A stretch of 64,000 bases of DNA from Squalus acanthias (taxonomy: Eukaryota). The stretch lies in the NCBI GenBank assembly GCA_030390025.1, contig JASTWF010000336.1, forward strand, positions 372,001 through 436,000, written 5' to 3'. Positions within the stretch are counted from its first letter, which is position 1; the number at the start of each line of letters is the position of its first letter. The notes under the pieces were generated by a model, which searched no databases, was not told the DNA's origin, and saw nothing but the letters and a program-made list of their open reading frames with translations. The position numbers and the translations under genes were made by a program. Positions 33,841 through 63,722 of this stretch are shown in pieces.

Positions 33841-33958
33841 CCGAAAGCTTGTAATTTTAAATAAATCGGTTGGACTATAACCTGGTGTTCCTCTTTTTGG
33901 TTGGACAGAACCCAAATTAACTGTAAATCAATTAAAACTTTAAATGAAACTTAATAAA

Positions 33959-36900
33959 TCAAATTAAAATTTGGAAGTCCGGGGTGACGATGCACTCCAG
34001 TCCCCGCGGCGCCCACCGGTCGCGGAAAAACTCAAGCGTGCCGGTGGACACCGCGTGCTCCATCTCCAGGGCCACCCGGGCGCGAACATGGCCGCGGAAG
34101 AGAGGCAGGCAATCGGGCCGAACGACCCCCCCGACCGCCCGCTGCCTGGACCAATTAATGGCTTTCTTGGCCAGGCCCAGGAGCAGTCCTACGAGGAGGT
34201 CCTCCGACCTACCCGCTCCCCTCCGCACCGGGTGACCGTAGATCAGGAGCGTGGGGCTGAAGTGCAACCAGAAATTGAGGAGCAGCCCCTTCAAATAATG
34301 AAAGAGGGGCTGCAACCTCTCACATTCAACATAAATGTGATAGACGGACTCCTCCAGGCCGCAGAAATGGCAAGCAGCCTGGGAGTCCGTAAACCTACTT
34401 AAAATCCTATTGCACGGGACTGCTCCGTGCAACACCCTCCAGGCCAAGTCCCCAATAGAACAAGGGAAGACTCCCGCGTAGAGAGCCTTCCAATGGGGAC
34501 CTTCGCCTCCGCCGGACGGCAGGATGGTACGCCAAGGCGTGTCCGGACGGCAGACGAAGATGGCAAAGTGGAGAGTGTGCAGGAGCAGCCCGTACAGGAA
34601 ACGCCTCCGTGCGGATTGAAAGGGCACGGAGGGCATTTCTCCGAGAAGGCTCAAGTGGTGAGGCGGCGGCTCCCGAGGGAGGATTCGGGGCCGGGCGCCG
34701 ATAAGGAATTCCGTCCGAACGGGGGTCAGTTCGGACGGGATCGCCCCACGTGCTTGAGCCTCCTCGACACACCTAGTGGAGACGGGGCCCAGTGCCACTT
34801 TTAGCGACTCGATGGCTTTGACCGCGAGCCGGACGTTGACCCAGGACATGCGCCTCGCCAACTCCTCCGGCGCCATCCAGCCCGCTCCTCCGCCATCGAG
34901 CAGGTCCCCGACTCTGGTCACCTTACCGGGCACAGCCCTGCCCTCCGCCAGCCAGCCGAACCCGCGGTCGTGGAGGTGCGGATTCCTGAACAGCGGCTCC
35001 CGAAGGACGGCCGCCGCTCCTGACGGGGGAGAACTGCGCTCGGAGGCGACGCTGTTCCAAACCCATAGCAGTTCCTGGTAGAAGATAGGCAGCTCCCGCA
35101 GGCTGGCACGCGTGCCACCCACTCTCACAAACAGGAGCTGCGTGTCGTAATTGAGGCCGTGCAGCTGGCGGAAGAAATACGTCGCCAGCGCACGCCACCT
35201 AGGAGGATTCTCCACGTACAGGTATCTCTGCAGCGTCTGAAGACGGAAAGTCGCCGCCTGGGTGCGAAGGCACACCAGCGCCTGACCGCCCTCCCTAAGC
35301 AGGAGACTCAAAACCGCGGCAGAGACCCAGTGCTTCCTTTTGTCCCAGAAGAAGTCGACGAGATTCTTCTGCATCTTGGCGACAAACGCAGGGGGAGGGA
35401 TCAAAGTGATCAACCGGTACCACAACATGGCGGCCACCAGCTGGTTTATGACCAGCGCTCGACCCCTGTAGGACAACACTCGGAGCAGTCCTGTCCAGCG
35501 CCCTAGGCGAGCGGTGACTTTGGCCTCCAGCTCTTGCCACTTCGCCGGCCAGGCGTCCTCGGCCGGGCTGAGGTAGACTCCCAGGTAGAGGAGGTGCGTG
35601 GTGCTCCAGGCGAAAGGCCCGAACTCCTCCGGCAGGGAGTCCACCCGCCATGGGCCCACCAGGAGTCCAGAACATTTCTCCCAGTTGATCTTGGCGGAGG
35701 ATGCGTCCGAGTAAATCTGCTGGCATTCTCGCATCCTCCGCAAGTCGACGGGATCCGTGACCGCGAGGAGCACGTCATCGGCGTAAGCCGAGAGGACCAC
35801 CTCCACGCCCGGCCCTTGCAGAGCCAGTCCCGTCAACCTCTTCCGCAAGAGGCGCAGGAAAGGCTCCACGCAAACGGCGTATAACTGACCGCACATGGGG
35901 CATCCCTGACGCACCCCCCTCCCGAAGCGAAGGGGCGCCGTCAAAGACCCGTTAACTTTAATCAGACACTCCGCGGCGGCGTACAGAAGTCGGATCCGGG
36001 CGACGAAATGCGTCCCGAACCCGAATGCGCGCAGAGTCCCGAAAAGATACTCGTGATCCACCCTGTCGAACGCCTTCTCCTGATCTAGGGAAAGGAAGGC
36101 GACCGACAGACCAGCCCTCTGGGAATGGTGGACCAGGTCCCGGACCAGATGGATGTTGTCGTGGATTGTCCGGCCCGGGACCGTGTAGGACTGGTCGGGG
36201 TGGATCATGCGGGCCAGCACGGTGCCAAGGCGAGCAGACATAGCCCTGGCGAAAATTTTGTAGTCCGTGCTGAGGAGGGAGACCGGGCGCCAGTTCTTAA
36301 GTAGGCGGAGATCGCTCTTCTTGGGCAGCAGGACGATGACCGCCCTGCGCCAAGAGAGGGGCATCTCCCCGGTCGCCAGACTTTCCCCCAGGACCCGCGC
36401 GTAGTCGTCCCCCAAGACGTCCCAGAACGCCCTGTGGAACTCCACGGTCAGCCCGTCCAGCCCCGGGGACTTGCCCCTCGAGAGCTGGCGCAGGGCGCCG
36501 GTCAGCTCCGCCAGGCTTAGCGGAGCTTCTAAATACTCGGCGCCCTCCGGGCCGACCTTCGGCAGGTTCTCCCACAAAACTCTGCGTGCATCCTCGCTGG
36601 ACGGATCCGAAGAGAACAGAGCCCCGTAATAGGCCCGGGCCTCCGCGCTGATGCCCTCCGGATCCGAGACCAGAGATCCGTCGTCGGCCAGCAGCCCCAA
36701 GAGCTGCTTACGGACCCCCCGTCTTTTTTCCAGCGAGTAGAAGAAGGGGGAGCCGCGGTCCAGGTCCCACAGGAACTGGATCCGCGACCTCACGTACGCG
36801 CCTCGGGACCCGACCAGCTGCAGGTCCTGCAGCGCGCCCTTCTTCTCTTCGTACACCTTCCGCAGGGCCGGGTCCTCGACGACTTGACCGAGACTGGACT

Positions 36901-37858
36901 CCAGGTCGAGCACTTCTTTCTCCAATCGCCCGACCCGGGCCTCCCGCCTCTTGGTCGACCCCTTCGCGTACTCCTGACAGAAGACGCGGACGTGAGCCTT
37001 GCCCATGTCCCACCATAGCCTCAAGGAGGGGAAGCCTCCCCGCTTCCTTCTCCAGTCGGCCCAGAACCGGCGAAACGAATCCCGGAACCGCACGTCCTCC
37101 AGCAGCAGGTTGTTAAAATGCCAGTACGCGGACCCCCCCCGCGCGCGCAGCGGAGCGAGCTCCGCCCACACCAGGTGGTGGTCCGTGCACGGCACCGGCC
37201 GCATGGAAGCCGCCGGAACGCAGGAGACGTACGCCCGGGAAATGTAAAGGCGGTCGATTCTGGACCTTCCTCCTCCAGACCTTACGCTCGTGAAGGCGCT
37301 GGAGTCGGGATGGAGATATCGCCAGACGTCCACCAAGTCGAAGGACCCGACCAGGTCCCGCAACTTCTCCATCGCCGCCGGGCTTCGCGGGGGACCCGAC
37401 CGGTCCCGCGCCTCGAGGGTACAATTGAAATCCCCCCCGAGGATGACGCACTCGCCCACGTCGATGGAGCCCAGAAGAGCGGACACTTCTCCGAAGAAGC
37501 GCACTTGCTGCGCACCGGGCCGGGGGGCGTACACGTTCACTAAATGGAGCGGCACGCCTCCCAGGCGAACAGTGACCTGGAGCAAGCGGCCCGGCACGTG
37601 CTCCTTGACCCTCAAGATCTCCGGCTGAAAATGCGGGGCCAGCAAGACAGCCACCCCGCAGGAATTGTTAGAGAGGTGACTCATGCTGACCCCTCCTTGC
37701 CACTCCAGGAGCCACGTGGCCTCGTCTCCCGGAACGGTGTGGGTTTCTTGCAGGAAGCACACCGCATATTTCCCGTCCCGAAGGACCGAGAAGTTATTGA
37801 ATCTACGGCGCGCCTCCCTGCTGCCGTTGATGTTGAGGCTGGCTATGGTTATCTTCAT
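33959..37858 (-). CDS. Tx1 ORF2: APE endonuclease, reverse transcriptase, C-terminal zinc finger; intact
   Basis: ASLNING, LQETH, GGDFN, SRIDR, TDH; KNWRPVSL, DQEKAFD, RQGCP, YADD; CHFCGLEESVYHIYVEC. Confidence 0.96.
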   Translation of the reverse strand: MKITIASLNINGSREARRRFNNFSVLRDGKYAVCFLQETHTVPGDEATWLLEWQGGVSMSHLSNNSCGVAVLLAPHFQPEILRVKEHVPGRLLQVTVRLGGVPLHLVNVYAPRPGAQQVRFFGEVSALLGSIDVGECVILGGDFNCTLEARDRSGPPRSPAAMEKLRDLVGSFDLVDVWRYLHPDSSAFTSVRSGGGRSRIDRLYISRAYVSCVPAASMRPVPCTDHHLVWAELAPLRARGGSAYWHFNNLLLEDVRFRDSFRRFWADWRRKRGGFPSLRLWWDMGKAHVRVFCQEYAKGSTKRREARVGRLEKEVLDLESSLGQVVEDPALRKVYEEKKGALQDLQLVGSRGAYVRSRIQFLWDLDRGSPFFYSLEKRRGVRKQLLGLLADDGSLVSDPEGISAEARAYYGALFSSDPSSEDARRVLWENLPKVGPEGAEYLEAPLSLAELTGALRQLSRGKSPGLDGLTVEFHRAFWDVLGDDYARVLGESLATGEMPLSWRRAVIVLLPKKSDLRLLKNWRPVSLLSTDYKIFARAMSARLGTVLARMIHPDQSYTVPGRTIHDNIHLVRDLVHHSQRAGLSVAFLSLDQEKAFDRVDHEYLFGTLRAFGFGTHFVARIRLLYAAAECLIKVNGSLTAPLRFGRGVRQGCPMCGQLYAVCVEPFLRLLRKRLTGLALQGPGVEVVLSAYADDVLLAVTDPVDLRRMRECQQIYSDASSAKINWEKCSGLLVGPWRVDSLPEEFGPFAWSTTHLLYLGVYLSPAEDAWPAKWQELEAKVTARLGRWTGLLRVLSYRGRALVINQLVAAMLWYRLITLIPPPAFVAKMQKNLVDFFWDKRKHWVSAAVLSLLLREGGQALVCLRTQAATFRLQTLQRYLYVENPPRWRALATYFFRQLHGLNYDTQLLFVRVGGTRASLRELPIFYQELLWVWNSVASERSSPPSGAAAVLREPLFRNPHLHDRGFGWLAEGRAVPGKVTRVGDLLDGGGAGWMAPEELARRMSWVNVRLAVKAIESLKVALGPVSTRCVEEAQARGAIPSELTPVRTEFLIGARPRILPREPPPHHLSLLGEMPSVPFQSARRRFLYGLLLHTLHFAIFVCRPDTPWRTILPSGGGEGPHWKALYAGVFPCSIGDLAWRVLHGAVPCNRILSRFTDSQAACHFCGLEESVYHIYVECERLQPLFHYLKGLLLNFWLHFSPTLLIYGHPVRRGAGRSEDLLVGLLLGLAKKAINWSRQRAVGGVVRPDCLPLFRGHVRARVALEMEHAVSTGTLEFFRDRWAPRGLECIVTPDFQILI

Positions 37859-37883
37859 CTCAGAAGCATAGTGCAACCTCTAC

Positions 37884-40041
37884 CTAACGGAGGGGAGGGA
37901 GCGCGGTCACTGACGACCGCCACTCCCTCAGCAGCCCAGTGTGGAAACTCTTGAGCCGACGCAGCTCGAGCCGGCCAACGTCCTTGTCCGCGCCCATGAT
38001 TTTAACGGCGGCGCGGACGGACACGACGAGCAGCGCCAGCTCCGACCACTTGTCGAGGGCCAGCCGGATCTTCTTGTGACGACCCTGGCTCATGGCCATA
38101 AAATCCCAGAGTTCCCCTACGGGGATGAGGGGAGAGTCGGTGAAGGGCACAAGGGCGTCCATCACCTCGCTGCCGATGGACTCCAAATCGTCCTCGATGC
38201 CCACCACCGAGTCCCCGTCCTCCTCCGGGAGGTCGTCACCGGCGGCCGACCCGTCCGTCGCACGGGGTGCAGCGAAAGGCTCGGCCGCACCGGCCGGCCC
38301 CGCCTCCGTCACGATCCCACCCCCAGGATCGGCGGCAGAGGAGTCCACCCTGGGCTCCTTCAGGGGCGCCGGGCCGGGAGGCGGCGGCGGTTCGGGCCCC
38401 CCCCCCGCCTCAGGCGCCGGAGCGACCGGAGAAACCGGGGAGAAAATAATCTCAAATTCCTCCAGTACGTCCGGCGCCAACATCAGAGACGGAGTCAGGG
38501 GGCTTTCTGTCTCCCCGCCACCAACCTCCGACCCAGCGGACTGGGGATTGTTATACTCCTCCACCAGGTCGAGCAGTCCCTGGGAGATATCTGGATTGTA
38601 AAAGGCGGGCTCGGCTTCAGCCTCTTTGGCCTCGCCCGCCCCAGTCCCCAGGACGCCCGACCCGGCGAGGAGCAACGGTTCCGGAACTACATTTCCCTCC
38701 GCGGGTTGTTCCGCGCCCCCCCCCCCCCATGGGCAGGGTCTCTTCCCCATCCCCGGGAGGCACAGGTCGGACAGACTCGGCTGTCTCACCCTCCCGAGGG
38801 ACAGGCGACCCCCGCCGCTCGCGCGCGACGATGACGGTGGTGGGGTGGGGCGCAGCACCCGCGGCGGGCGACGACTCCCCTTCCGCGGAGGGACCTTCCT
38901 CCTCGCAGTCCTCCTCCTGGGGGTCGAGCTTCCTTTTTAACATATTGGGGCCCGGAGAGGGGGAGGCCTCCATGTCTGCTGGGGCCTCCCTCTCTGCCCC
39001 CTTCCGATGACTGGGTTTCTTGGGCCCCTCGGGCCCGAGCCCGGCCGCAGGTCTTGATTCAGCTGCCTCAGCAGTTGCGGTCACGGTCACGGGCCCGGGC
39101 ACGAGGACCCCCCCAGTCTCATGCGTCCCGACCAACTCCGCGATGTACTCGGGCGTGAGTTCGGTCAACTCGGATGTTTCCTCCGCGAGGGGATCCGCCC
39201 TTAGGTGTTTATTTTTCCTACGCGCCTTCCTTCCCCCCGGACGCTCTCCCTCCTCCCCGCCGGAGGCCGTGGTGGTGTTGGCCTCCGATTTCGACCGCGC
39301 ATCCGTCGCCGTCGACGCGCGGACAGTATCAGGGGGAGGGGGGGCGGCAGCGCCAACCCTGGCCGCGCCAGGTGTCGTGGCGGCCTTGGAGGCGGGGCAG
39401 TTTTTGCGGACGTGCCCCACCTCCTTACAGGCGTAGCACCGCACGCTGTCCGAGGTCCAGAAGACGCGGTGGGCGGTCCCCCCGTGGAGCACCGTGAACG
39501 CGCCATCCGCGTCCTCCTCCCGCGCCAGCCGGACGAAAAGCTGGCGCCGGAAGGAGAAGACGTGCCGAAGGCTGGCTTCCCGGAAGCCGAGCGGGATGGG
39601 TGTGATCCCCGACCTCACCTCCCCCAGTTGACGTAGGTGGGGGAGGAGGAGCTCACCCGGAACAAAGGGCGGGACGTTGGAAACCACAATCCTTTGCGCG
39701 GTGGCCTCAAGGGGGTCCACCGGCAGGAAGGTCCCGCCCACGGTGAGCCCCTTCTCGATGACCAGGGACACCGCCCGCTCCGTCCCCAGGAAGAACACAG
39801 CCTTGCCGTACATTTTAGAGGCGGCGACGATGGCTGAAGGGCCGACAACCCCAGCCATGGCTTTTACGCACGCCTCTATTGTCATATTGGGGTGAGTGCA
39901 GCTCTTGACCCCATTCTTCCTCGTAAGGAGGGTAAAAGGTGACGGGGTAACAGGAGGACTCGTGGCTGAGGCCGTGGCCGCGGCTGCCACGCTTGCGTAT
40001 GTCCTCGCTGCCCCCGCCACCGGCGAAGATGTAGTCGCCAT
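37884..40041 (-). CDS. Tx1 ORF1 (zinc knuckle), frameshifted in a C13 run at 38716-38728
   Basis: ORFs 38617-40071 and 37884-38858 join to match the intact ORF1 at 57507-59654; CYACKEVGHVRKNC. Confidence 0.9.
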
Positions 40042-41034
40042 GATGGGTTGGTCCTTAAGGGCTACACTCACCCCAAGTCACAGGCCTGAAGGTGTTAATG
40101 GCCTCTGGTTTTTTGTTTTTGTTTTCCCCTGAGCAGAGGGAGCTCTTAAATTGAAGGCACACCTCTCCCTTTGTATGAATTAATTAGGAGAGGGGCCTTC
40201 TCCCCTCTGCTCAATAGGTACTTAATTAAAAGATAATGAGGTGCCTCTTAGAGAGAGAGGCAGAGAGAGACAAGAGACAAAGAGAGAGAGAGAGGGGGTG
40301 GGAAGGAGGGAAGCCGCAAGGGCAGGGTCGCCACTCAGGATGGTGGGTGGGTGGGTGTTGGCAGGGGGGTGCACTCTCCGATGTAATAAAAGTCTTTGGT
40401 GGTGGTCTTCTGGTGGGGGGAGAAGATGTCTTCACCTGGGATAGCTGGAGATGCCCAGGCTCAGTCCTGCACCAGGTCTTAACGATGCCCAATAAGATTA
40501 AATTAATTGGGGACTTCACCTAGGCAGCTCCAGATGTCCCAGGCCAGGCAATGGGAAAGGGGTGTTTAATATGGTGTGTGCGGCCTAGCTTTTACAGAAG
40601 CCACACACACACACACACACACACACCCCTTGGATGTTCCGGCCCTCTTCTTTTTCTTCTTTCCTCCCCCCACCTACAAAACAAAGTCTCTGGGAGAGTG
40701 CACCAGAATCACACCCACCTGTAGATGATGTTCTTTCCTTCCTCCCTCCTTCCAAACAGTTGATGTTTGTTGTTGGTATGTTTTCTCCCCTCTCTCCCTC
40801 TCCTAAAATGGAGGCCAATTGAGGAGGCAGTGTGGAAAGACCTCTCCTCTGATGTTTGATGGCCTTGGCCTTCTTTTCTTTTCTTTCCTCTCTCCTCTCC
40901 TGTCCTCTCTCTCCAGGCACCTCAGTTGTGGATGTGTTGGTTGTTGGTGGTGGCCTGCTGTCTGGTCTCCTTCTCCTTCTCCTCTTCCTGCTCACAGAGA
41001 CCACTCTGCTGCTGCTGCTGCTCCTCCGTCAGCA

Positions 41035-41137
41035 GCTCCGAAAGCTTGTAAAATTAAATAAATCTGTTGGACTATAACCTGGTGTTGTGCGACTTCTCAT
41101 TTTTGTCCACCCCAGTCCAACACCGGCATCTCCACAT
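41035..41137 (+). mobile_element. 3' half of hammerhead repeat plus its tail (Penelope/retrozyme-like), Tx1-A target
   Basis: GCTCC-GAAA-GCTT-GTAA...TTGGACTATAACCTGGTGTTGTGCGACTTCTCA; same family as 48888-49009 and 63649-63722. Confidence 0.8.
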
Positions 41138-47247: not shown

Positions 47248-47673
<426 letters not shown>

Positions 47674-48457: not shown

Positions 48458-48501
48458 GTTGTTGTATTTGATGCTAAAGTCTGGAGCCGGGCAGGGTGAG
48501 T

Positions 48502-48887
<386 letters not shown>

Positions 48888-48896
48888 TATTTGAAA

Positions 48897-48938
48897 TCAC
48901 AAGCTTTCGGAGCTATCGATCGCCCCTTCCTCAGGTGA
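48897..48938 (-). ncRNA. Minimal type I hammerhead motif in a 96-bp tandem unit
   Basis: Minus strand TCAC-CTGAGGA-A-GGGGC-GATCGATA-GCTCC-GAAA-GCTT-GTGA. Confidence 0.8.
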
Positions 48939-49857
48939 AGTGAATGAGAAGTCGCACAACACCAGGTTATAGTCCAACAGTTTTATTTGAAATCACAAGC
49001 TTTCGGAGCTGCTGACGAAGGAGCAGCAGCAGCAGAGTGGTGGTCTCTGTGACCAGGAAGAGGAGAAGGAGAAGGAGACCAGACAGCAGACCACCACCAA
49101 CAACCACTACTGAGGTGCCTGGAGAGAGAGGACAGGAGAGGAGAGAGAAAAGAAGGGAAGGCCAAGGCCATTAACAACAGAGGGGAGGCCTTTCCATCAC
49201 TGCCTCCTCAATTGGCCTCCATTTTAGGAGAGGGAGAGAGGGGAGAAAACATCACAACATCCATCATCTGTTTGGAAGGAGGAAGGAAGGAAAGAACAGC
49301 TACAGGTGAATCTTTTATTCAAACCAATAATACAAATTACATAGTAAAACCATTACATTCATCCATCAAAATACAGTACAAATACCCCCAAACAATACCA
49401 CACTTTTTTTTTTATATTAAAATAATACATCTCACTTAACTCCACATAAAACAACCCATTTCAACACCACAGTGTACAAACACATAGCACCATCACAATC
49501 CAACTAAATGCCACATATAACATCCACTCCAATAACCCAAGAAACCTGTTCCGCGCCAGTCCCACTGGCACCGCCCACCCGACCATCCACTCAATTGTTC
49601 TCCGTGCTGGGCCTCCCGCCCAGGCCACTCTCCTCCGGGTCTTCCACCTTGGGCCTTCTGCACCGGACCCTCCGCACCGGCATTCCCCGCGAGCAGCCGG
49701 GGTGAATCAACTGCATCTCCCGACTCCACCTCTGCCGACCAGCCGCCCCGCCCTGGGCCCCCCGCCTGGGGTTCTCCGTGCTGGGCCTCCCGCCCAGGCC
49801 ACTCTCCTCCGGGTCTTCCACCTTGGGCCTTCTGCGAAGCGGACAACTTGGAGTGCA

Positions 49858-52800
49858 TTAAATTAAAATAACATTTCCCGGGGAAACGATGCACTCCAGT
49901 CCCTGCGGCGCCCACCGGTCTCGGAAGGCTTCAAGTGTGCCGGCGGACACCGCATGCTCCATCTCCAGGGCCACCCGGGCGCGAACATAGCCGCGGAAGA
50001 GAGGCAGGCAATTGGGCCGAACGACCCCCTCGACCGCCCGCTGCCTGGACCTGTTAATGGCCACTTTGGCCAGGCCCAGGAGCAGTCCTACGAGGAGGTC
50101 CTCCGACTTGCTCTCTCCCCTCCGCACCGGGTGACCGTAGATCAGGAGCGTGGGACTGAAGTGCAACCAAAAAGCGAGGAGCAGCCCCTTCAAATATTCA
50201 AAGAGGGGCTGCAACCTCTCACATTCCACATAAACGTGGAACACGGACTCCTCGAGGCCGCAAAAAAGACAGGCGGCCTGGGAGTCCGTGAACCTACTTA
50301 AAAACCGATTGCACGGGACTGCTCCGTGCAACACCCTCCAGGCCATGTCCCCAATAGAAAAGGGGAGTACTCCCGCATAGAGAGCCCTCCATTGGGGACC
50401 TTCGCCTCCGCCGGACGGCAAGATGGCACGCCAAGGCGTGTCCGGACGGCAGGCGAAGATGACAAAGTGGAAAGTGTGCAGGAGCAGCCCGTACAGGAAA
50501 CCCCTCCGTGCAGAACTGAAGGGCACAGAGGGCATTTCCCCGAGACGGCTCAAGTTGTGAGGCGCCGGTTCCCGAGAGGGGTTTCGGGGCCGTGCGCCGA
50601 TGAGGAATTCCGTCCGAACGGAGGTCAGTTCGGACGGGATCGCCCCACGTACTTGAGCCTCCTCGATACACCTAGTGGAGTCCGGGCCCAGTGCCACTTT
50701 CAGCAACTCGATGGCTTTGGCCGCGCGCCAGACGTCTGCCCAGGAGAGGCGCCGCGCCAACTCCTCTGGCGCCATCCAGCCCGCTCCTCCGCCATCGAGC
50801 AGGTCCCTGACTCTGGTCACCTTGCCTGGCACAGCCCTGCCCTCCGCCAGCCAGCCGATCCGTCGGACGTGGAGGTGCGGATTCCTGAACAGCGGCTCCC
50901 GAAGGAGAGCCGCCACTCCTGACGGGGGAGAACTCCGCCTGGAGGCGACCTGGTTCCAGACCCATAGCAGTTCCTGGTAAAAGACAGGCAGCTCCCACAG
51001 GTAGGCTCGCGTGCGGCCCAATTCCACAAACAGGAGCTGCGTGTCGTAGTTGAGGCCGTGCATCTGGCGGAAGAAATACGTCGCCAGCGCACACCATCTG
51101 GGAGGATTCTCGACGTAAAGGTACCTCTGCAGCGTCTGAAGACGGAAAGTCGCCGCCTGGGTGCGAAGGCACACCAGCGCCTGACCGCCCTCCCTAAGCG
51201 GGAGACACAGAACCGCGGCAGAGACCCAGTGCTTCCTTTTGTCCCAGAAGAAGTCGATGAGCATCTTCTGTATCTTGGCGACAAACGCAGGGGGAGGGAT
51301 CAAAGTGACCAACCGGTACCACAACATGGCGGCCACCAGCTGGTTTATGACGAGCGCTCGACCCCTGTAGGACAACACTCGGAGCAACCCCGTCCAGCGT
51401 CCTAGGCGAGCGGTGACCTTGGCCTCCAGCTCTTGCCAGTTCGCCGGCCAGGTGTCCTCGGCAGGGCTGAGGTAGACTCCCAAGTAGAGGAGGTGTGTTG
51501 TGCTCCAGGCGAAGGGCCTGAACTCCTCCGGCAGGGAGTCCACCTGCCACTGGCCCACCAGGAGTCCAGAACATTTCTCCCAGTTGATCCTGGCGGAGGA
51601 TGCGTCCGAGTAAATCTGCTGGCATTCTCGCATCCTCCGCAGGTCGACGGGATCCGTGACCATGAGGAGCACGTCATCGGCGTAAGCCGAGAGGACGACC
51701 TCCATGCCCGGCCCTTGCAGAGCCAGTCCCGTCAACCTCTTCCGCAAGAGGCGCAGGAAAGGCTCCACGCAAACGGCATATAACTGACCGGACATGGGGC
51801 ATCCCTGACGCACCCCCCCTCCCGAAGCGAAGGGGCGCCGTCAAAGACCCGTTAACTTTAATCAGACACTCCGCGGCGGCGTACAGAAGTCGGATCCGGG
51901 CGACGAAATGCGTCCCGAACCCGAATGCGCGCAGAGTCCCGAAGAGATACTCGTGATCCACCCTGTCGAACGCCTTCTCCTGATCCAGGGAAAGGAAGGC
52001 GACCGACAGACCAGTCCTCTGGGAAAGGTGGACCAGGTCCCGGACCAGATGGATGTTGTCGTGGATTGTCCGGCCCGGGACCGTGTAGGACTGGTCGGGG
52101 TGGATCATGTGGGCCAGCACGGTGCCGAGGCGGGCAGACATGGCCCTGGCAAAAATTTTATAGTCCGTGCTGAGGAGGGAGACCGGGCGCCAGTTTTTTA
52201 AAAGGCGGAGATCACCCCTCTTGGGCAGCAGGACGATAACCGCCCTGCGCCAAGAGAGGGGCATCTCCCCGGTCGCCAGACTTTCCCCCAGGACCCGCGC
52301 GTAGTCGCCCCCCAAGACGTCCCAGAACGCCCTGTGGAACTCCACGGTCAGCCCGTCCAGCCCCGGGGACTTTCCCCTCGAGAGCTGGCGCAGGGCGCCG
52401 GTCAGCTCCGCCAAACTTAGCGGAGCGTCCAATTCTTCGGCGCCCTCCGGGCCGACCTTCGGCAAGTCCTCCCACAAAACTCTGCGCGCATCCTCGCTGG
52501 ACGGATCCGGAGAGAACAGAGCCCCGTAATAGGCCCGGGTCCCCGCGCTGATCCCCTCCGGATCCGAGACCAGAGATCCGTCGTCGGCCAGCAGCCCCAA
52601 GAGCTGCTTACGGACCCCTCGTCTTTTTTCCAGCGAGTAGAAGAAGGGGGAGCCGCGGTCCAGGTCCCGCAGGAACTGGATTCGCGACCTCACGTACGCG
52701 CCTCGGGACCCGACCAGCTGCAGGTCCTTCAGCGCGCCCTTCTTCTCTTCGTACACCTTCCGCAGGGCCGGGTCTTCGACGACTTGACCGAGACGGGACT

Positions 52801-53758
52801 CCAGGTCGAGCACTTCTTTCTCCAATCGCCCGACCCGGGCCTCCCGCCTCTTGGTCGACCCCTTCGCGTACTCCTGACAGAAGAGACGGACGTGAGCCTT
52901 GCCCACGTCCCACCATAGCCTCAAGGAGGGGAAGCCCCCCTGCTTCCTTCTCCAGTCGGCCCAGAACCGGCGAAACGAATCCCGGAACCGCACGTCCTCC
53001 AGCAGCAGGTTGTTAAAATGCCAGTACGCGGACCCCCCCGGCGCCTGCAACGGAGCGAGCTCCGCCCACACCAGGTGGTGGTCCGTGCACGGCACCGGCC
53101 GCATGGAAGCCGCCGGAACGCAGGAGACGTACGCCCGGGAAATGTAAAGGCGGTCGATTCTGGACCTTCCTCCTCCAGACCCCACCCAAGTGAAGGCGCT
53201 GGAGTCGGGATGGAGATTTCGCCAGACGTCCACCAAGTCGAAGGACCCGACCAGGTCCCTCAACTTCACCGTCGCCGTCAGGCTTCGCGAAGGGCCCGAA
53301 CGGTCCCTCGCCTCGAGGGTACAATTAAAATCCCCCCCGAGGATGATGCACTCGCCGACGTCGACGGTGCCCAGAAGAGCGGACACTTCATCGAAGAAGC
53401 GCACTTGCTGCGCACCGGGCTGGGGGGCGTACACGTTCACTAAATGGAGCGGCACGCCCCCCAGACGAACAGTGACCTGGAGCAAGCGGCCCGGCACATG
53501 CTCCTTGACCCCCAAGATCTCCGGCTGAAAATGCGGGGCCAGCAAGATAGCCACCCCACCGGAAACGTTGGAGAGGTGACTCATGCTGACCCCTCCTCGC
53601 CACTCCAGGAGCCACGTGGCCTCGTCTCCCGGAACGGTGTGAGTTTCCTGCAGGAAGCACACCGCATGCCTCCCTTCCCGAAGGACCGAGAAGTTATTAA
53701 ATCTACGGCGTGCCTCTCTGCTGCCGTTGATGTTGAGGCTGGCTATGGTTATCTTCAT
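49858..53758 (-). CDS. Tx1-B ORF2 (EN-RT-zinc finger), one frameshift in a C run at 51813-51819
   Basis: ORFs 51674-53776 and 49858-51813 join; C7 here versus C6 in copy A1. Confidence 0.92.
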
Positions 53759-53789
53759 GACAAGAGCATAGTGCAACCTCTACCTTACT

Positions 53790-55877
53790 CTAACGGGAGG
53801 AGGGAGCGCGGCCGCTAGTCGACCGCCACTCCCTTCCAAGCCCAGCGAGGAAATTCTGGATCCGACGCCGCTCGGCCAGGCCCACGCCCCCGTCCGCGCC
53901 CATGGTTTTGACTGCGGCGCGGACGGAGCAAACGAGCAGCGCCAGATCCGACCATTTATCGATGGCCAGCCGGATTATATCCTGGCGACCCTGGCCCATG
54001 GCCACAAAGTCCCGGAGTTCCACAACGGGGATGAGGGGGGACCCGGAGGAGGGCACGAGGGCATCCGCCGCCTCACTGGCGACGGATTCCATATCATCCT
54101 CAGTGTCCTCCGCCGGGTCCCCGTCCTCCTCCGGGGGGTCGCCATCGGCCAGCCCTACCTCTGCCCCGATCCCACCCCCAGGATCGGCAGCAGAGGAGTC
54201 CTCCCTGGGCTCCTCCAGAGGCGCCGGGTCAGGAAGCGGCGGCGGCTCGGGGCCCCCCTCCGCCCCCGGCACCGGGGTGCACAGGGAAACCGGGGAGCAC
54301 ATTAGTGCCAGTTCCCTCAACAACCCCGGCGCCAGCGTCGCAGACGGAGTCAGGGGGCCTTCCCCTTCACCGCCACCATCCTCCGACCCAGCGGACCAGG
54401 TACCCTGGTTATATTGCTCAACCAGGTCGAGCAGTGCCTGGGAGTGGTCCTGACCGTACACGGCGGGCTCTGCCTCATCGGCCTCGCCCGCCCCGGTCCC
54501 CAGGATGCCCGACCTGGCGAGAAACAACGGATCAGCGTAACTCCCCACCGCGGGTAGTTCCGCGGCCCCCCCCATGAGCAGGGCCTCTCCCCCATCCCCG
54601 GGAGGCACAGGCTGGACAGACTCATCTGTCATGCCCTCCCGGGGGACAGGCGGCCCCTGCCGGATCTCGGTGATGGTGTCGGTGGGGGGGGGCGCAGCAC
54701 CCGCGGCGGGCAACGACTCCCCTTGCGAGGGGGGACCCCGTTCCTCACGGTCCTCCCCCTCATCCAGGATGTCGCGCCTCCTTTTCGAAGAGGAGGGACA
54801 CGAAGGTTGGGAGACCTCCATGCATACCGAGGCCTCCACCTCCGCTCCCCCCTGTCGATCGGTCTGCTCGGGGGTCCCGGGCCCGGTCACGGCCGCAGGT
54901 CTCGATTTTGCCGCCTTGGCGGATGCGGCCGCAGGCCCGGGCACAAGGTCCCTCGCATTCTCGAACTCCGCCGCCACCCGCGCAAGGTGTAGGGGCGTAA
55001 GCTCGGGTAAGTCATCATATATGTGAAGGGGACCCGCCTGAAGGTGTTTGCTTTTCCTCCGCGCCTTCCTTCCAGTCGGACGCTCCCCCTCCCCTTCGCC
55101 GGATGCCGCGACGGCGTTGACCTCCGGCGTCGACCGCGCATCGGGTGTCGCAGACGTGCGGACAGAAACAGGGGGAGGAGCGGCGGCGGCGCCAGCCTTG
55201 GCCGCCTCAGATGCTTTGGCGGCCTTGGAGGCGGGGCAGTTCTTTCTTATGTGCCCCACCTCCTTACAGGCATGGCACCGCACACCGTCCGACGTCCAGA
55301 AGACGCGGTAGGCGGTCCCCTCGTGTGTTATGCTAAATGCGCCTTCCGTGTCTTCCTCCCGCGCCAGCTGGATAAACAGCTGGCGCCGGAAGGAGAAGAC
55401 GTGCCGGAGGCTGGCCTCCCTGCAGCCGAGCGGGATCGGATTAATCCCCGACCTCACCTCCCCCAGTTGACGTAGGTGGGGGAGGAGGAGCTCAACCGGA
55501 ACAAATGGCGGGACATTCGATAGTATGAGTCGCTGCTCGGTGGCCTCGAGCGGATCCACCGGCAGGAAGGTCCCGCCCACGGTGAGCCCCTCGGTGACGG
55601 CCAGGGACACCGCCCGCTCCGACCGCAGGAAGAACACAGCCTTACCGTACATTTTAGAGGCCGCAACGATGGCTGAGGGGCCGACTACCCCAGCCATGGC
55701 TTTGACGCAAGCCTCTATGGTCATGTTGGGGTGAGTGTAGCTCTTCACCCCCAGCTTTTTTGTCAATAGCCTGAAAGGCGACGGGGCAGCAGAAGCAGCG
55801 GGACCAGCTGTGGCCGTGGCTGCCACACCCGCGTACGACCTTGCTTGCCCCGCCGCCGGCGAAGATGTGCTCGCCAT
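53790..55877 (-). CDS. Tx1-B ORF1, intact
   Basis: MASTSSPAAGQ...; CHACKEVGHIRKNC zinc knuckle. Confidence 0.9.
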   Translation of the reverse strand: MASTSSPAAGQARSYAGVAATATAGPAASAAPSPFRLLTKKLGVKSYTHPNMTIEACVKAMAGVVGPSAIVAASKMYGKAVFFLRSERAVSLAVTEGLTVGGTFLPVDPLEATEQRLILSNVPPFVPVELLLPHLRQLGEVRSGINPIPLGCREASLRHVFSFRRQLFIQLAREEDTEGAFSITHEGTAYRVFWTSDGVRCHACKEVGHIRKNCPASKAAKASEAAKAGAAAAPPPVSVRTSATPDARSTPEVNAVAASGEGEGERPTGRKARRKSKHLQAGPLHIYDDLPELTPLHLARVAAEFENARDLVPGPAAASAKAAKSRPAAVTGPGTPEQTDRQGGAEVEASVCMEVSQPSCPSSSKRRRDILDEGEDREERGPPSQGESLPAAGAAPPPTDTITEIRQGPPVPREGMTDESVQPVPPGDGGEALLMGGAAELPAVGSYADPLFLARSGILGTGAGEADEAEPAVYGQDHSQALLDLVEQYNQGTWSAGSEDGGGEGEGPLTPSATLAPGLLRELALMCSPVSLCTPVPGAEGGPEPPPLPDPAPLEEPREDSSAADPGGGIGAEVGLADGDPPEEDGDPAEDTEDDMESVASEAADALVPSSGSPLIPVVELRDFVAMGQGRQDIIRLAIDKWSDLALLVCSVRAAVKTMGADGGVGLAERRRIQNFLAGLGREWRSTSGRAPSSR

Positions 55878-57506
55878 ACTGAGGTGGTATAAAGGGCTAC
55901 ACCCACCCCAAGTCACAGGCCGGGTGATGTTTAAGTGGCCTTGGGTTTTTTTTGTCTTTTCCCCCGAGCAGAGGGGGTTGTTTTGAGAAAAAGAAGGCAC
56001 ACCTCTCCCTTTTATGATTGGAATTGGGAGTGGCCTTCTCCCCTCTGCTCAATTGGGTAATAAATAAGGTTTGAGGTGCCTCATTAGAGAGAGGCAGAGA
56101 GAGAGAGAGAGAGAGAGGGGGTGGGAAGGAGGAAAGGGGGAAGGCCGCACGGGCCTATTCGCCACTCAGGATAGTGGGTGGGTGGGTGCCTCCTTGGGGG
56201 GGGGGGGGCACTCTTCGATGATAAATAAAGTCTTTGTTGATGTTCTTCTGGTGGGGGGAGAAGATGTCTTCACCTGGGAAAAAATAAAGCTGGAGATGCC
56301 CAGGCTCAGTCTACAACCAGGTCTTAACAATGTTCTAAAATGTGAAGCAATAGGCAAGGGGTGCTTGTTGATGGTGTGTGTGGCCAAGTTGTTAGCAAGA
56401 GCCACACACACTCACACACACCCCTTGCTATCCTGGTCTTCTCCTTCTTCTTTCCTCCCCCCACCTCAAATACAAAGTCTTTTGGAGAGTGCCCTTTTTA
56501 ACACCCACCTCTCGATGTTGTTTTCCTTCTCGAAGGCTCGCTCTCCCTCCTTCCAAGCAGATGTTGGTCTTGTTCTCCCCTCTCTCCCTCTCTCGTAATG
56601 GAGACCAGTTGGGGAGGCAGTGATGGAAAGGCTTCCCTCTGTTGCTGTTGCTGGTCTCCTCTCTCTCCTCTCCTCTCTCACCTCAGCAGCAGTCGTGGTT
56701 GTAGCTGTAGCTGCAGGCGTGGTGGAGGTGGAAAAGGTCTCCACTCTGTCCTTCGTGGCTCCTTCTCCTTCTAGGCACAGAGAAAAGAGACCTCTCCTTT
56801 CCCCTCCTCTTCTCAGCAAACGGCGCTCACCCGTTCACGCAGCACCGTGTTGAGCTGAGTCCCTCGCAGCCTCAGCCTCTGCCTCCGTCTCCGTCTGTCC
56901 TCGCCTGGGACCGCACTCGGTGTGTGTGTGTGTGTGTGTGGCTTCTGTAAAAGCTAGGCCGCACACACCATATTAAACATCCCTTTCCCATTGCCTGACC
57001 TGGGACAGCTGGAGCTGCCTAGGTGAAGTCCCCAATTCAAACAACATCTAATTGGGCATCGTTAAGACCTGGTGCAGGACTGAGCCTGGGCATCTCCAGC
57101 TATCCCAGGTGAAGACATCTTCTCCCCCCACCAGAAGACCACCACCAAAGACTTTTATTACATCGGAGAGTGCACCCCCCCTGCCAACACCCACCCACCC
57201 ACCATCCTGAGTGGCGACCCTGCCCTTGCGGCTTCCCTCCTTCCCACCCCCCCTCTCTCTCTCTCTCTTTGTCTCTTGTCTCTCTCTGCCTCTCTCTCTA
57301 AGAGGCACCTCAATCTATTTTTATTAAGTACCTATTGAGCAGAGGGGAGAAGGTCCCTCTCCCAATTCAATCAACTAAAGGGAGAGGTGTGCCTTCAATT
57401 TAAGAGCTCCCTCTGCTCAGGGGAAAACAGAAACAAAAAACCGAGGCCATTAACACCTTCAGGCCTGTGACTTGGGGTGAGTGTAGCCCTTAAGGACCAA
57501 CCCATC

Positions 57507-59654
57507 ATGGCGACCACATCTTCGCCGGTGGCGGGGGCAGCGAGGACATACGCAAGCGTGGCAGCCGCGGCCACGGCCGCAGCCACGAGTCCTCCTGTTA
57601 CCCCGTCACCTTTTACCCTCCTTACGAGGAAGAATGGGGTCAAGAGCTACACTCACCCCAATATGACAATAGAGGCGTGCGTAAAAGCCATGGCTGGGGT
57701 TGTCGGCCCTTCAGCCATCGTCGCCGCCTCTAAAATGTACGGCAAGGCTGTGTTCTTCCTGGGGTCGGAGCGGGCGGTGTCCCTGGCCATCGAGAAGGGG
57801 CTCACCGTGGGCGGGACCTTCCTGCCGGTGGACCCCCTTGAGGCCACCGCGCAAAGGATTGTGGTTTCCAACGTCCCGCCCTTTGTTCCGGGTGAGCTCC
57901 TCCTCCCCCACCTACGTCAACTGGGGGAGGTGAGGTCGGGGATCACACCCATCCCGCTCGGCTTCCGGGAAGCCAGCCTTCGGCACGTCTTCTCCTTCCG
58001 GCGCCAGCTTTTCGTCCGGTTGGCGCGGGAGGAGGACGCGGATGGCGCGTTCACGGTGCTCCACGGGGGGACCGCCCACCGCGTCTTCTGGACCTCGGAC
58101 GGCGTGCGGTGCTACGCCTGTAAGGAGGTGGGGCACGTCCGCAAAAACTGCCCCGCCTCCAAGGCCGCCACGACACCTGGCGCGGCCAGGGTTGGCGCCG
58201 CCGCCCCCCCTCCCCCTGATACTGTCCGCGCGTCGACGGCGACGGATGCGCGGTCGAAATCGGAGGCCAACACCACCACGGCCTCCGGCGGGGGGGAGGG
58301 AGAGCGTCCGGGGGGAAGGAAGGCGCGTAGGAAAAATAAACACCTAAGGGCGGATCCCCTCGTGGAGGAAACATCCGAGTTGACCGAACTCACGCCCGAG
58401 TACATCGCGGAGTTGATCGGGACGCATGAGACTGGGGGGGTCCTCGTGCCCGGGCCCGTGACCGCAACTGCTGAGGCAGCTAAATCAAGACCTGCGGCCG
58501 GGCTCGGGCCCGAGGGGCCCAAGAAACCCAGTCGTCGGAAGGGGGCAGAGAGGGAGGCCCCAGCAGACATGGAGGCCTCCCCCTCTCCGGGCCCCAATAT
58601 GTTAAAAAGAAAGCTAGACCCCCAGGAGGAGGACTTCGAGGAGGAAGGTCCCTCCGCAGAAGGGGAGTCGTCGCCCGCCACGGGTGCTGCGCCCCACCCC
58701 ACCACCGTCATTGTCGCACGCGATCGGCAGGGGTCGTCTGTCCCTCGGGAGGGTGAGACAGCCGAGTCTGTCCGACCTGTGCCTCCCGGGGATGGGGAAG
58801 AGACCCTGCCCGTGGGGGGGGGCGCGGAACAACCCGCGGAGGGAAATGTAGTTCCGGAACCGTTGCTCCTCGCCGGGTCGGGCGTCCTGGGGACTGGGGC
58901 GGGCGAGGCCAAAGAGGCTGAAGCCGAGCCCGCCTTTTATAACCCAGATATCTCCCAGGGACTGCTCGACCTGGTGGAGGAGTGTAACAATCCCCAGCCC
59001 GCTGGGTCGGAGGTTGGTGGCGGGGAGACAGAAAGCCCCCTGACTCCGTCTCTGATGTTGGCGCCGGACGTACTGGAGGAATTTGAGATTATTTTCTCCC
59101 CGGTTTCTCCGGTCGCTCCGGCGCCTGAGGCGAGGGGGGGCCCCGAACCGCCGCCGCCTCCCGGCCCGGCGCCCCTGAAGGAGCCCAGGGTGGACTCCTC
59201 TGCCACCGATCCTGGGGGTGGGATCGTGACGGAGGCGGGGCCGGCCGGTGCGGCCGAGCCGTTCGCTGCACCCCGTGTGACGGACGGGTTGGCCGCCGGT
59301 GACGACCTCCCGGAGGAGGACGGGGACTCGGTGTTGGGCACCGAGGACGATTTGGAGTCCATCAGCAGCGAGGCGATGGACGCCCTCGTGCCCTTCACCG
59401 ACTCTCCCCTCATCCCCGTAGGGGAACTCCGGGATTTTATGGCCGTGAGCCAGGGTCGTCACAAGAAGATCCGGTTGGCCCTCGACAAGTGGTCGGAGCT
59501 GGCGCTGCTCGTCGTGTCCGTCCGCGCCGCTGTTAAAATCATGGGCGCGGACAAGGACGTTGGCCGGCTCGAGCTGCGTCGGCTCAAGAGTTTCCACACT
59601 GGGCTGCTGAGGGAGTGGCGGTCGTCGGTGACCGCGCTCCCTCCCCTCCGTTAG
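57507..59654 (+). CDS. Tx1-A ORF1, intact
   Basis: MATTSSPVAG...; CYACKEVGHVRKNC. Confidence 0.92.
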   Translation: MATTSSPVAGAARTYASVAAAATAAATSPPVTPSPFTLLTRKNGVKSYTHPNMTIEACVKAMAGVVGPSAIVAASKMYGKAVFFLGSERAVSLAIEKGLTVGGTFLPVDPLEATAQRIVVSNVPPFVPGELLLPHLRQLGEVRSGITPIPLGFREASLRHVFSFRRQLFVRLAREEDADGAFTVLHGGTAHRVFWTSDGVRCYACKEVGHVRKNCPASKAATTPGAARVGAAAPPPPDTVRASTATDARSKSEANTTTASGGGEGERPGGRKARRKNKHLRADPLVEETSELTELTPEYIAELIGTHETGGVLVPGPVTATAEAAKSRPAAGLGPEGPKKPSRRKGAEREAPADMEASPSPGPNMLKRKLDPQEEDFEEEGPSAEGESSPATGAAPHPTTVIVARDRQGSSVPREGETAESVRPVPPGDGEETLPVGGGAEQPAEGNVVPEPLLLAGSGVLGTGAGEAKEAEAEPAFYNPDISQGLLDLVEECNNPQPAGSEVGGGETESPLTPSLMLAPDVLEEFEIIFSPVSPVAPAPEARGGPEPPPPPGPAPLKEPRVDSSATDPGGGIVTEAGPAGAAEPFAAPRVTDGLAAGDDLPEEDGDSVLGTEDDLESISSEAMDALVPFTDSPLIPVGELRDFMAVSQGRHKKIRLALDKWSELALLVVSVRAAVKIMGADKDVGRLELRRLKSFHTGLLREWRSSVTALPPLR

Positions 59655-59679
59655 GTAGAGGTTGCACTATGCTTCTGAG

Positions 59680-62600
59680 ATGAAGATAACCATAGCCAGC
59701 CTCAACATCAACGGCAGCAGGGAGGCGCGCCGTAGATTCAATAACTTCTCGGTCCTTCGGGACGGGAAATATGCGGTGTGCTTCCTGCAAGAAACCCACA
59801 CCGTTCCGGGAGACGAGGCCACGTGGCTCCTGGAGTGGCAAGGAGGGGTCAGCATGAGTCACCTCTCCAACAATTCCTGCGGGGTGGCTGTCTTGCTGGC
59901 CCCGCATTTTCAGCCGGAGATCTTGAGGGTCAAGGAGCATGTGCCGGGCCGCTTGCTCCAGGTCACTGTTCGCCTGGGAGGCGTGCCGCTCCATTTAGTG
60001 AACATGTACGCCCCCCGGACCGGTGCGCAGCAAGTCCGCTTCTTCGGAGAAGTGTCCGCTCTTCTGGGCTCCATCGACGTGGGCGAGTGCGTCATCCTCA
60101 GGGGGGATTTCAATTGTACCCTCGAGGCGCGGGACCGGTCGGGTCCCCCGCGAAGCCCGGCGGCGATGGAGAAGTTGCGGGACCTGGTCGGGTCCTTCGA
60201 CTTGGTGGACGTCTGGCGAAATCTCCATCCCGACTCCAGCGCCTTCACGAGCGTGAGGTCTGGAGGAGGAAGGTCCAGAATCGACCGCCTTTACATTTCC
60301 CGGGCGTACGTCTCCTGCGTTCCGGCGGCTTCCATGCGGCCGGTGCCGTGCACGGACCACCACCTGGTGTGGGCGGAGCTCGCTCCGCTGCGCGCGCGGG
60401 GGGGGGTCCGCGTACTGGCATTTTAACAACCTGCTGCTGGAGGACGCGCGGTTCCGGGATTCGTTTCGCCGATTCTGGGCCGACTGGAGAAGGAAGCGGG
60501 GAGGCTTCCCCTCCTTGAGGCTATGGTGGGACGTGGGCAAGGCTCACGTCCGCGTCTTCTGTCAGGAGTACGCGAAGGGGTCGACCAAGAGGCGGGAGGC
60601 CCGGGTCGGGCGATTGGAGAAAGAAGTGCTCGACCTGGAGTCCCGTCTCGGTCAGGTCGTCGAGGACCCGGCCCTGCGGAAGGTGTACGAAGAGAAGAAG
60701 GGCGCGCTGAAGGACCTGCAGCTGGTCGGGTCCCGAGGCGCGTACGTGAGGTCGCGGATCCAGTTCCTGCGGGACCTGGACCGCGGCTCCCCCTTCTTCT
60801 ACTCGCTGGAAAAAAGACGGGGGGTCCGTAAGCAGCTCTTGGGGCTGCTGGCCGACGACGGATCTCTGGTCTCGGATCCGGAGGGCATCAGCGCGGAGGC
60901 CCGGGCCTATTACGGGGCTCTGTTCTCTTCGGATCCGTCCAGCGAGGATGCGCGCAGAGTTTTGTGGGAGGACCTGCCGAAGGTCGGCCCGGAGGGCGCC
61001 GAGAATTTAGAAGCTCCGCTAAGCCTGGCGGAGCTGACCGGCGCCCTGCGCCAGCTCTCGAGGGGCAAGTCCCCGGGGCTGGACGGGCTGACCGTGGAGT
61101 TCCACAGGGCGTTCTGGGACGTCTTGGGGGACGACTACACGCGGGTCCTGGGGGAAAGTCTGGCGACCGGGGAGATGCCCCTCTCTTGGCGCAGGGCGGT
61201 CATCGTCCTGCTGCCCAAGAAGGGCGATCTCCGCCTAATTAAGAACTGGCGCCCGGTCTCCCTCCTCAGCACGGACTACAAAATTTTCGCCAGGGCTATG
61301 TCTGCTCGCCTTGGCACCGTGCTGGCCCGCATGATCCACCCCGACCAGTCCTACACGGTCCCGGGCCGGAGCATCCACGATAACATCCCTCTGGTCCGGG
61401 ACCTGGTCCACCATTCCCAGAGGGCTGGTCTGTCGGTCGCCTTCCTTTCCCTGGATCAGGAGAAGGCGTTCGACAGGGTGGATCACGAGTATCTTTTCGG
61501 GACTCTGCGCGCATTCGGGTTCGGGACGCATTTCGTCGCCCGGATCCGACTTCTGTACGCCGCCGCGGAGTGTCTCATTAAAGTTAACGGGTCTTTGACG
61601 GCGCCCCTTCGCTTCGGGAGGGGGGTGCGTCAGGGATGCCCCATGTCCTGTCAGTTATACGCCGTTTGCGTGGAGCCTTTCCTGCGCCTCTTGCGGAAGA
61701 GGTTGACGGGACTGGCTCTGCAAGGGCCGGGCGTGGAGGTGGTCCTCTCGGCGTACGCCGATGACGTGCTCCTCGCGGTCACGGATCCCGTCGACTTGCG
61801 GAGGATGCGAGAATGCCAGCAGATTTACTCGGACGCATCCTCCGCCAAGATCAACTGGGAGAAATGTTCTGGACTCCTGGTGGGCCCATGGCGGGTGGAC
61901 TCCCTGCCGGAGGAGTTCGGGCCTTTCGCCTGGAGCACCACGCACCTCCTCTACCTGGGAGTCTACCTCAGCCCGGCCGAGGACGCCTGGCCGGCGAACT
62001 GGCAAGAGCTGGAGGCCAAAGTCACCGCTCGCCTAGGACGCTGGACAGGACTGCTCCGAGTGTTGTCCTACAGGGGTCGAGCGCTGGTCATAAACCAGCT
62101 GGTGGCCGCCATGTTGTGGTACCGGTTGATCACTTTGATCCCTCCCCCTGCGTTTGTCGCCAAGATGCAGAAGAAGCTCGTCGACTTCTTCTGGGACAAA
62201 AGGAAGCACTGGGTCTCTGCCGCGGTTTTGAGTCTCCCGCTTAGGGAGGGCGGTCAGGCGCTGGTGTGCCTTCGCACCCAGGCGGCGACTTTCCGTCTTC
62301 AGACGCTGCAGAGATACCTGTACGTGGAGAATCCTCCTAGGTGGCGTGCGCTGGCGACGTATTTCTTCCGCCAGCTGCACGGCCTCAATTACGACACGCA
62401 GCTCCTGTTTGTGAGAGTGGGTGGCACGCGTGCCAGCCTGCGGGAGCTGCCTGTCTTCTACCAGGAACTGCTATGGGTTTGGAACAGCGTCGCCTCCGAG
62501 CGCAGTTCTCCCCCGTCAGGAGCGGCGGCCGTCCTTCGGGAGCCGCTGTTCAGGAATCCGCACCTCCACGACCGCGGGTTCGGCTGGCTGGCGGAGGGCA

Positions 62601-63580: not shown

Positions 63581-63683
63581 TTTGTTAAGTTTCATTTAAA
63601 GTTTTAATTGATTTACAGTAAATTTGTGTTTGTCCAACCAAAAAGAGCAACACCAGGTTATAGTCCAACAGATTTATTTAATT

Positions 63684-63722
63684 TTACAAGCTTTCGAAGC
63701 AGTTCGCTCCTTCGTCACGTAA
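63684..63722 (-). ncRNA. Hammerhead motif variant (core C3 changed to G)
   Basis: Minus strand TTAC-GTGACGA-A-GGAGC-GAACT-GCTTC-GAAA-GCTT-GTAA. Confidence 0.65.

Follow-up and report, generated by a model that had tools for sequence, protein, structure and literature searches.

An inverted target motif in the leader of a Tx1-type LINE of Squalus acanthias: a probable Penelope fold-back relic

Nested mobile elements among histone genes

The window, a stretch of 64,000 nucleotides from Squalus acanthias (GenBank assembly GCA_030390025.1, contig JASTWF010000336.1, positions 372,001 to 436,000 of the forward strand), contains histone genes and three LINE copies (Table 1). Copies 1 and 3, assigned to Tx1 family A, are 98% alike. 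The family B copy, which shares 85% DNA identity with family A and 93% identity in ORF2 over 660 aa, interrupts the leader of copy 3, and ~90 nt of that leader are gone at the insertion. Together, the stretch 48500-63722 and locus L324 display a five-level nest, in which a histone H3-like coding stretch is outermost, followed by a folded-back Penelope copy (the other arm of the outer piece lies past the window end), a second Penelope subfamily, Tx1 family A and finally family B. Family B is likewise found reversed at the start of a GT run, at family A leader position ~411-413, in L099, L101 and L128.

Table 1. Mobile-element features of the window (positions in the window; strand as read)
Position	Strand	Feature
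33838..33890	-	Right-hand target of copy 1; stops at GGAGC, before any segment that could have given the inverted motif
33891..41034	-	Tx1 family A copy 1, with an open ORF2 of 1305 aa and a variant of the motif at 41032-41020
41035..41087	-	Carried arm of copy 1; unlike the right-hand target 33890-33838
48888..48941	-	Penelope-like terminal repeat piece with putative minimal hammerhead (by eye); inserted earlier, as the outer element, into a histone H3-like coding stretch
48942..48956	-	Penelope target upstream of the Tx1 nick
48957..49009	+	Target-like arm at the family A front; direct copy of Penelope antisense, not of the local target
49010..49029	+	Junction probably captured from a Penelope fold-back; TG is followed by the hammerhead core and the 5' strand of stem II, both inverted
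49020..49308	+	Native 5' leader, first part, of Tx1 family A copy 3
49309..56919	-	Tx1 family B copy, inside the family A leader of copy 3
56920..63647	+	Remainder of Tx1 family A copy 3, with a zinc-knuckle ORF1 and an ORF2 split over two frames
63648..63722	-	Local Penelope target past the 3' end of copy 3; putative minimal hammerhead, core position 3 changed to G

The Penelope piece around copy 1 lies in the TATA-like box of a histone H4 promoter, flanked by a 13-nt duplication (33828-33840, 41139-41151), and the H4 coding region begins at 41199. L104, L106 and L319 are independent Penelope plus Tx1 insertions in one multicopy gene, each at its TATA-like box, with both orientations represented. 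Elsewhere in the window, several kilobases of diverged internal tandem repeats occupy 17190-28770 (self-matches 63-74%), and positions 1-4166 and 44758-48877 form a 4.2-kb direct duplicate of 94% identity that is part of the histone cluster repeat.

The ORF2 product contains the Pfam domains Exo_endo_phos, RVT_1 and a weak zf-RVT, and ORF1 contains zf-CCHC. In pairwise scoring, ORF2 is 50% identical to YTX2_XENLA (Tx1L of Xenopus laevis) over 99% cover with 1369 bits, and reaches 270 bits with human L1 ORF2p, below the Tx1L score. The 3' ends lie at the target site, a single base of the Penelope terminal repeat, in 73 of the 76 copies that have one; 7 of the 83 copies classed below have no 3' end in the examined stretch. 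Judged by domain content, likeness to Tx1L and the site-specific 3' junction, the element would belong to the Tx1 clade.

The target is a Penelope-like terminal repeat, of which a 30-mer has 90,712 matches in the genome; the genome-wide counts given here for this 30-mer, the leader anchor and the LINE junction types are exact matches in the 3.7-Gb assembly. Weak protein matches to RVT_1 (E 2.6e-4, L277) and GIY-YIG (E 4.2e-4, L285) were obtained, both under curated cut-offs, and the reading frames end just before the terminal repeat, where those of a Penelope would be expected. Inspection by eye identified a putative minimal type I hammerhead in this repeat, with core, stem II, GAAA-GC-UU and a 4-bp helix I; it has no match in Rfam, and a pattern script found none in the window. 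Penelope-like elements are described as having an inverted 5'-truncated copy, a 30-40-nt tail at one end and minimal hammerheads (PMC8557442, PMC4209133, PMC11167929). The target here likewise has inverted 5' copies, one-sided tails and a putative hammerhead in which helix I is short and helix III palindromic.

Insertion into a mobile element is known in the clade: Tx1L inserts in the piggyBac-type Tx1D, and both Tx1L and the crocodilian Tx1-Mar/SINEU resemble family A in having a mobile-element target and tandem insertions around a duplication (PMC4494074). The 5' extension that SINEU-2B derives from its own Mariner target is similar to the arm carried by family A (PMC4494074). Unlike Tx1L and Tx1-Mar as portrayed in the accessible text, family A targets a Penelope terminal repeat, several arm lengths coexist and neighbouring copies share 5' ends. 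The literature search, whose scope lay outside Repbase, most subscription papers and supplements (that of PMC4494074 lists Tx1 targets), found no Tx1 element targeting Penelope repeats and, within the same scope, no report of coexisting arms of several lengths, of neighbours with common 5' ends or of shared breakpoints with mixed tails.

The inverted motif and the front ends of family A

In copy 3, TG at 49010-49011 is followed by CTGACGAAGGAGC at 49012-49024, and copy 1 reads CTGACGGAGGAGC at 41032-41020 on the minus strand. The reverse complement, GCTCCTTCGTCA, is located in the target at 63706-63717. These letters and positions all agree with the initial annotation. The motif 12-mer has one match per strand in the window, against a chance expectation of 0.008; the inverted motif is target sequence by homology, and chance is excluded. 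The inverted stretch is longer than first noted, extending to 18 nt (49012-49029) when compared with a target variant with loop TGCT (L073), and positions 49020-49029 are common to the fold-back junction and the native leader.

The element had been taken to begin at the motif, but the 53 nt ahead of it (48957-49009) travel with the element, and the motif now stands ~55 letters inside a front-end arm of target-like sequence. Nor is this stretch the duplicate of the local target that it was thought to be: it differs from 63648-63700 at 6 positions, and the arms of copy 1 differ as well. Neither window motif was copied on the spot, since the target of copy 3 reads GTGACG rather than CTGACG (63718 = C) and that of copy 1 ends at GGAGC, before the segment. 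The local target is thus discarded as the source of the motif.

A 23-nt leader anchor gave 816 matches genome-wide, and the first 83 in genome order were classed by front end; they include array units, and counting one per type per array leaves 49 (15, 12, 11, 7, 3 and 1). Eleven of the 83 are not full length and were left out of the body trees, the linkage test and the neighbour comparisons. The full motif is present in 26 of the 83 copies, CTGAC alone ahead of the native TGAGGAGC in 20, and no motif in 37. Among the latter, 17 combine a 16-nt target copy with the longest native leader, 9 and 4 are joined after AAGCTT, 5 after GGAGCTG and 2 elsewhere. The assumption that the motif is fixed in the family does not hold, as these 37 include full-length copies. 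Six front ends occur among full-length copies, with 16 to ~75 nt of target-like sequence that is often unlike the local target. The genome counts by junction type are 222 for the full motif (a figure that takes in some Penelope-only sites, 3 of the first 30), 222 for the short motif and 93 for the 16-nt type.

Targets were compared in 55 rows, after four of 59 were dropped (L112, L125, L265, L221), from a set in which 40 copies collected earlier, with a bias towards the motif, are pooled with the 83 unbiased ones. For the 17 motif copies with a natural right flank, the target equals the motif in 8, deviates in 8 and has no such segment in 1. The motif matches a deviating local target in none of the 8 informative copies, and the covariation with target variants that had been envisaged is therefore absent; only L202, L208 and L239 among the eight carry subfamily variants and are hence robust, the remaining 5 deviations being single changes that could postdate insertion. 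The same 0 of 8, together with the missing local source in copy 1, rules out a fresh fold-back at each insertion.

On element-body trees, which are poorly resolved, junction types do not cluster (leader, 30 changes vs 28.3 when shuffled), and they are barely linked to nearby variants. Junction type as a lineage marker is supported by neither the trees nor the linkage. Simple RNA inheritance of the junction is not shown by descent, because tree clustering is absent and linkage slight, and the pattern has to be read as heavy reshuffling of junction types, which it fits. In a set of 17 sequencing runs, represented by assembled contigs and of presumed RNA status, X1 has a contig that spans 48986-49052 with zero differences, and X16 contains a tandem junction without 8 nt of the motif region; these contigs show presence only.

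Origin of the motif

We assign a probability of roughly 0.7 to the reading that the motif is an inherited, dispensable relic, probably a scrap of a Penelope fold-back captured by a Tx1-type LINE, and that it requires no function of its own. Fold-backs are routine in the target family: an inverted arm lies within 1.5 kb in 15 of the first 30 exact target matches, a count made per match in which one insertion may count twice. The motif junction itself occurs without the LINE, letter for letter, at L171, the single genome-wide copy of the exact LINE-free junction, and LINE-free junctions 1-2 nt off were found at L162, L177, L305 and L097. A second LINE front end continues into, and matches, a second Penelope fold-back class, centred on AAGCTT and represented by 84 LINE-free sites.

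A search for other letters ahead of the motif returned 4 matches, three with one variant junction and the fourth at L321. There, ~90 nt of the locus's own fold-back target, private variants included, are repeated at the left end; the left repeat enters the leader via the inverted arm, and the hairpin tip of the right copy is shorter by 7 nt. We read L321 as a fold-back capture, seen once. A comparable ancestral event would have started with pairing between the native leader and the inverted arm of a folded-back target, both of which contain GGAGCAGCAG. Such pairing would have created the motif, and later copies would obtain it from the RNA or from a neighbour. This differs from Penelope-like elements as the available accounts describe them, in that a fragment of the fold-back junction would here have moved into the leader of another element. 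The initial annotation had offered, among three options, a fixed relic of an ancestral template switch: the relic stands, its fixation in the family does not, and the inversion was probably made by Penelope.

An origin by the LINE alone, in which an ancestral cDNA end snapped back on nearby target and was copied in reverse, would also leave a passenger relic, and we consider it unlikely. R2 has a low-frequency class of 5' junctions with reverse-complemented nearby target (PMC11331408), the 3-nt microhomology at the junction could serve either process, and the exact LINE-free junction is single-copy. These points are weighed against the regularity of Penelope fold-backs, the LINE-free junctions within 0-2 nt of the motif junction and the capture from a fold-back target at L321.

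Retention of the motif as a second landing place for the cDNA, raising insertion success by means of the inverted arm present in many targets, appears improbable. L321 joined exactly there, and no front ends are commoner than the full and short motif types; however, the dedicated search produced one such junction in 4 matches vs ~200 ordinary motif junctions, and the longer direct arms alone could account for the abundance of the motif types. Motif copies are also not enriched in fold-back targets, with 6/17 vs 4/16, 4/9, 1/2 and 3/10 for the other front-end types in the 400 nt examined.

It is very improbable that Penelope machinery moves the whole unit backwards, with the inversion disabling the tail hammerhead so that the LINE stays attached. 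The 9-14-nt repeat around the whole Penelope plus LINE unit in many solo copies is compatible with such a move, but is equally expected from a LINE entering an existing Penelope copy; moreover, identical LINE 3' ends adjoin many different Penelope subfamilies, and none of the 19 odd copies examined is a clean 3' truncation with an outer duplication.

Scarcely tenable is the option that the motif joins an antisense GCUCC-GAAA-GCUU RNA as a hammerhead in trans that cleaves this RNA: positions 49012-49024 do hold the CUGANGA core and a stem II strand, an extra unpaired base before stem II fits Penelope minimal hammerheads (PMC4209133) and the second type retains CUGA..GA and GGAGC with a shifted register, but helix I, with 4/4 pairs in Penelope, has 1/4 or 0/4 in trans, the core of the sense RNA is predicted to be hidden in a hairpin with a CAG run (-13.5 kcal/mol vs -10.2 for stem II in trans), antisense RNA across the junction is predicted to form a full duplex (-102), and 37/83 copies are without the motif. 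A type II/III hammerhead on the sense strand, with GAAA at 48988, was rejected, with no helix III seen by eye and no Rfam match. A search for a 5' self-cleaving ribozyme at 48800-49400 gave no Rfam match, and the folds there are not unusual. As the ribozyme reading fails, the motif itself is ordinary; precedents exist in the target sequence carried by R2 and R1 and in L1 templated insertions. The main interest lies in the record of homology-guided 5' joining and not in the motif.

Carried arms, arrays and the joining of 5' ends

Of eight truncation breakpoints, seven have 14-18 target letters and the other has 24; 14-18 nt is accordingly taken as the true enzymatic target duplication. A true duplication of 54 nt as the rule is ruled out by these breakpoints and by the differences between arm and target. 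The longer arm is carried, since a difference from the right target is present in 32 of 45 long arms, the arm exceeds the available right target in length at L095, L122 and L256 (three of six 'short target' flags, L097, L227 and L234, were artefacts and are left out of this count), and G at arm position 12 occurs in 24/93 short-arm junctions and in 0 of the 55 right targets compared. These left/right differences indicate that target-like sequence is probably inherited at the LINE 5' end.

Against carriage alone, letters private to the target, from +19 to +58, recur on the left in L222, L223, L204-207 and L307; the point at which copying passes from target to donor thus differs between loci. 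Such a variable switch point would follow from homologous pairing of the cDNA end with DNA downstream of the nick. As regards possible carriage of sequence upstream of the nick, inverted arms extend only 12-17 nt in that direction, with one clear mismatch (L115). It is likely that direct homology guides 5' joining, the element carrying a 16-58-nt target copy. The RNA would start no later than position 12 of the target copy, leaving target-like sequence at the end of the cDNA; this end would then pair with matching DNA downstream of the nick, be it in the target, in the inverted arm of a folded-back target or in a resident LINE, and all sequence from the nick to the pairing point would be copied. 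The option that pairing between the element's end and the target guides joining thus survives in spirit, with the direct target copy ahead of the motif as the probable guide in place of the motif itself. The motif served as landing homology in at most one locus (L321) among ~200 motif-bearing junctions.

The last letters of family A 3' ends vary between copies (GAG or GAT, then C or G), which suggests, by analogy with R1, that the RNA may run into the target at the 3' end too. Internal deletions with both ends kept are found in L264 (42 nt of leader plus ~15 nt of tail), L113 and L110, and these copies are possible non-autonomous seeds.

In R2 and R1, the second strand is primed by annealing of target sequence at the cDNA end to the target itself (PMC3774820, PMC2718515, PMC11331408), and duplications propagate and lengthen the 5' end, with R1 tandem arrays inside the element's own duplication (same sources). 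In earwig R2, 22 bp of downstream target are carried as a duplication that has substitutions (PMC3774820, PMC2718515), and the arm of family A is close to R2/R1 elements with target-bearing RNA, earwig R2 above all. Family A differs from R2/R1, as far as the accessible sections go, in that its homology lies downstream of the nick and spans 16-75 nt, and no 5' ribozyme was found. In L1 templated insertions, the growing cDNA pairs with nearby homology and duplicates a close genomic segment; they are rare, with 22 cases and templates mostly <250 bp (10.1101/2024.08.27.596794). In contrast to L1 in the part of that study available, templated copying looks routine in the Tx1 element, because the homology always adjoins the nick.

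Arrays of family A units exhibit strong sharing of 5' ends. Neighbours have the same junction type in 22 of 25 cases (22% expected), and an unusually long common 5' run is present in 15 of 24 full-length array pairs, a common 3' run in 1 of 24; the common runs measure 200-4400 nt in 14 of the 24 pairs. L309 comprises 14 truncated units of ~332 nt with one breakpoint and 6 tails, mostly among the genome-wide common tails; all 13 adjacent pairs differ, and two private variants occur in neighbouring blocks and in 0/72 elsewhere. In L310, 8 of 9 units share one breakpoint with 6 tails, and in L311 one private tail is present in 4 of 5 units; one unit in each of these two arrays has its own breakpoint. 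The R1 model of independent double insertion predicts distinct truncations (10.1101/158386, in its accessible part), unlike the identical truncation points with different tails seen here. Other observations concern L311 and L314 (C18:15.19 and 15.30 Mb), which have the same left flank and breakpoint with different tails and are a segmental duplicate or two alleles, of use for timing the gain of units, and L204 and L206, which are near-identical. A more diverged family A array in another target (TACACTGTGTTG...), repeated between units, is present at L252 and L253 (C4:101.81-101.83 Mb).

We infer, by analogy with L1 templated insertions, that new array units may be completed from the downstream resident copy. 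The broader proposal, that the LINE routinely completes insertion by its cDNA invading matching DNA downstream of the nick and thereby takes over a neighbour's front end, is tentative, and we would give it slightly less than an even chance. The main competing account, which we regard as somewhat unlikely, has arrays arising by DNA duplication, after which reverse transcription overwrites the 3' ends via the upstream copy; sharing of 5' ends would then be uninformative. The private tail in four units of L311, the resemblance of L314 to the same site with other tails and the near-identity of L204 and L206 speak for it; L311 and L314 point to DNA-level copying in some arrays, and for these two duplication with overwriting is the better fit than completion from a downstream resident. 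Diversity at four-fold sites is lower in ORF2 (0.005-0.012) than in ORF1 (0.017-0.028), a pattern consistent with younger 3' parts under either account. Overwriting would nevertheless be needed after almost every duplication, given the 13/13 differing pairs of L309 and the single long 3' run in 24 pairs, and L321, a solo copy without prior duplication, displays copying from downstream DNA.

In the 3' two-thirds of ORF1 (72 full-length copies), second-codon-position diversity (0.029) equals or exceeds that at four-fold sites (0.028, 0.019). ORF1 may therefore be under relaxed or positive selection, and ORF2 appears constrained.

How LINEs join their 5' ends is an open question, for which family A provides a natural marker system, with a polymorphic target at >90,000 exact sites, a carried copy of that target and distinguishable array units. 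The 5' ends shared by neighbours likely record copies finished by pairing with DNA next to the cut. If the LINE routinely completes its insertions in this manner, front ends of up to kilobases would come from a neighbour and truncated cDNAs would become full-length copies, arrays of broken copies would grow with one inherited breakpoint, and scraps of target would be ratcheted into the leader. Hundreds of copies in this genome would then document, as natural records, the step of LINE insertion that is least understood. Completion by downstream homology would explain both mosaic LINE copies and uniform truncated arrays, and would have a bearing on template design in retrotransposon-based gene insertion.
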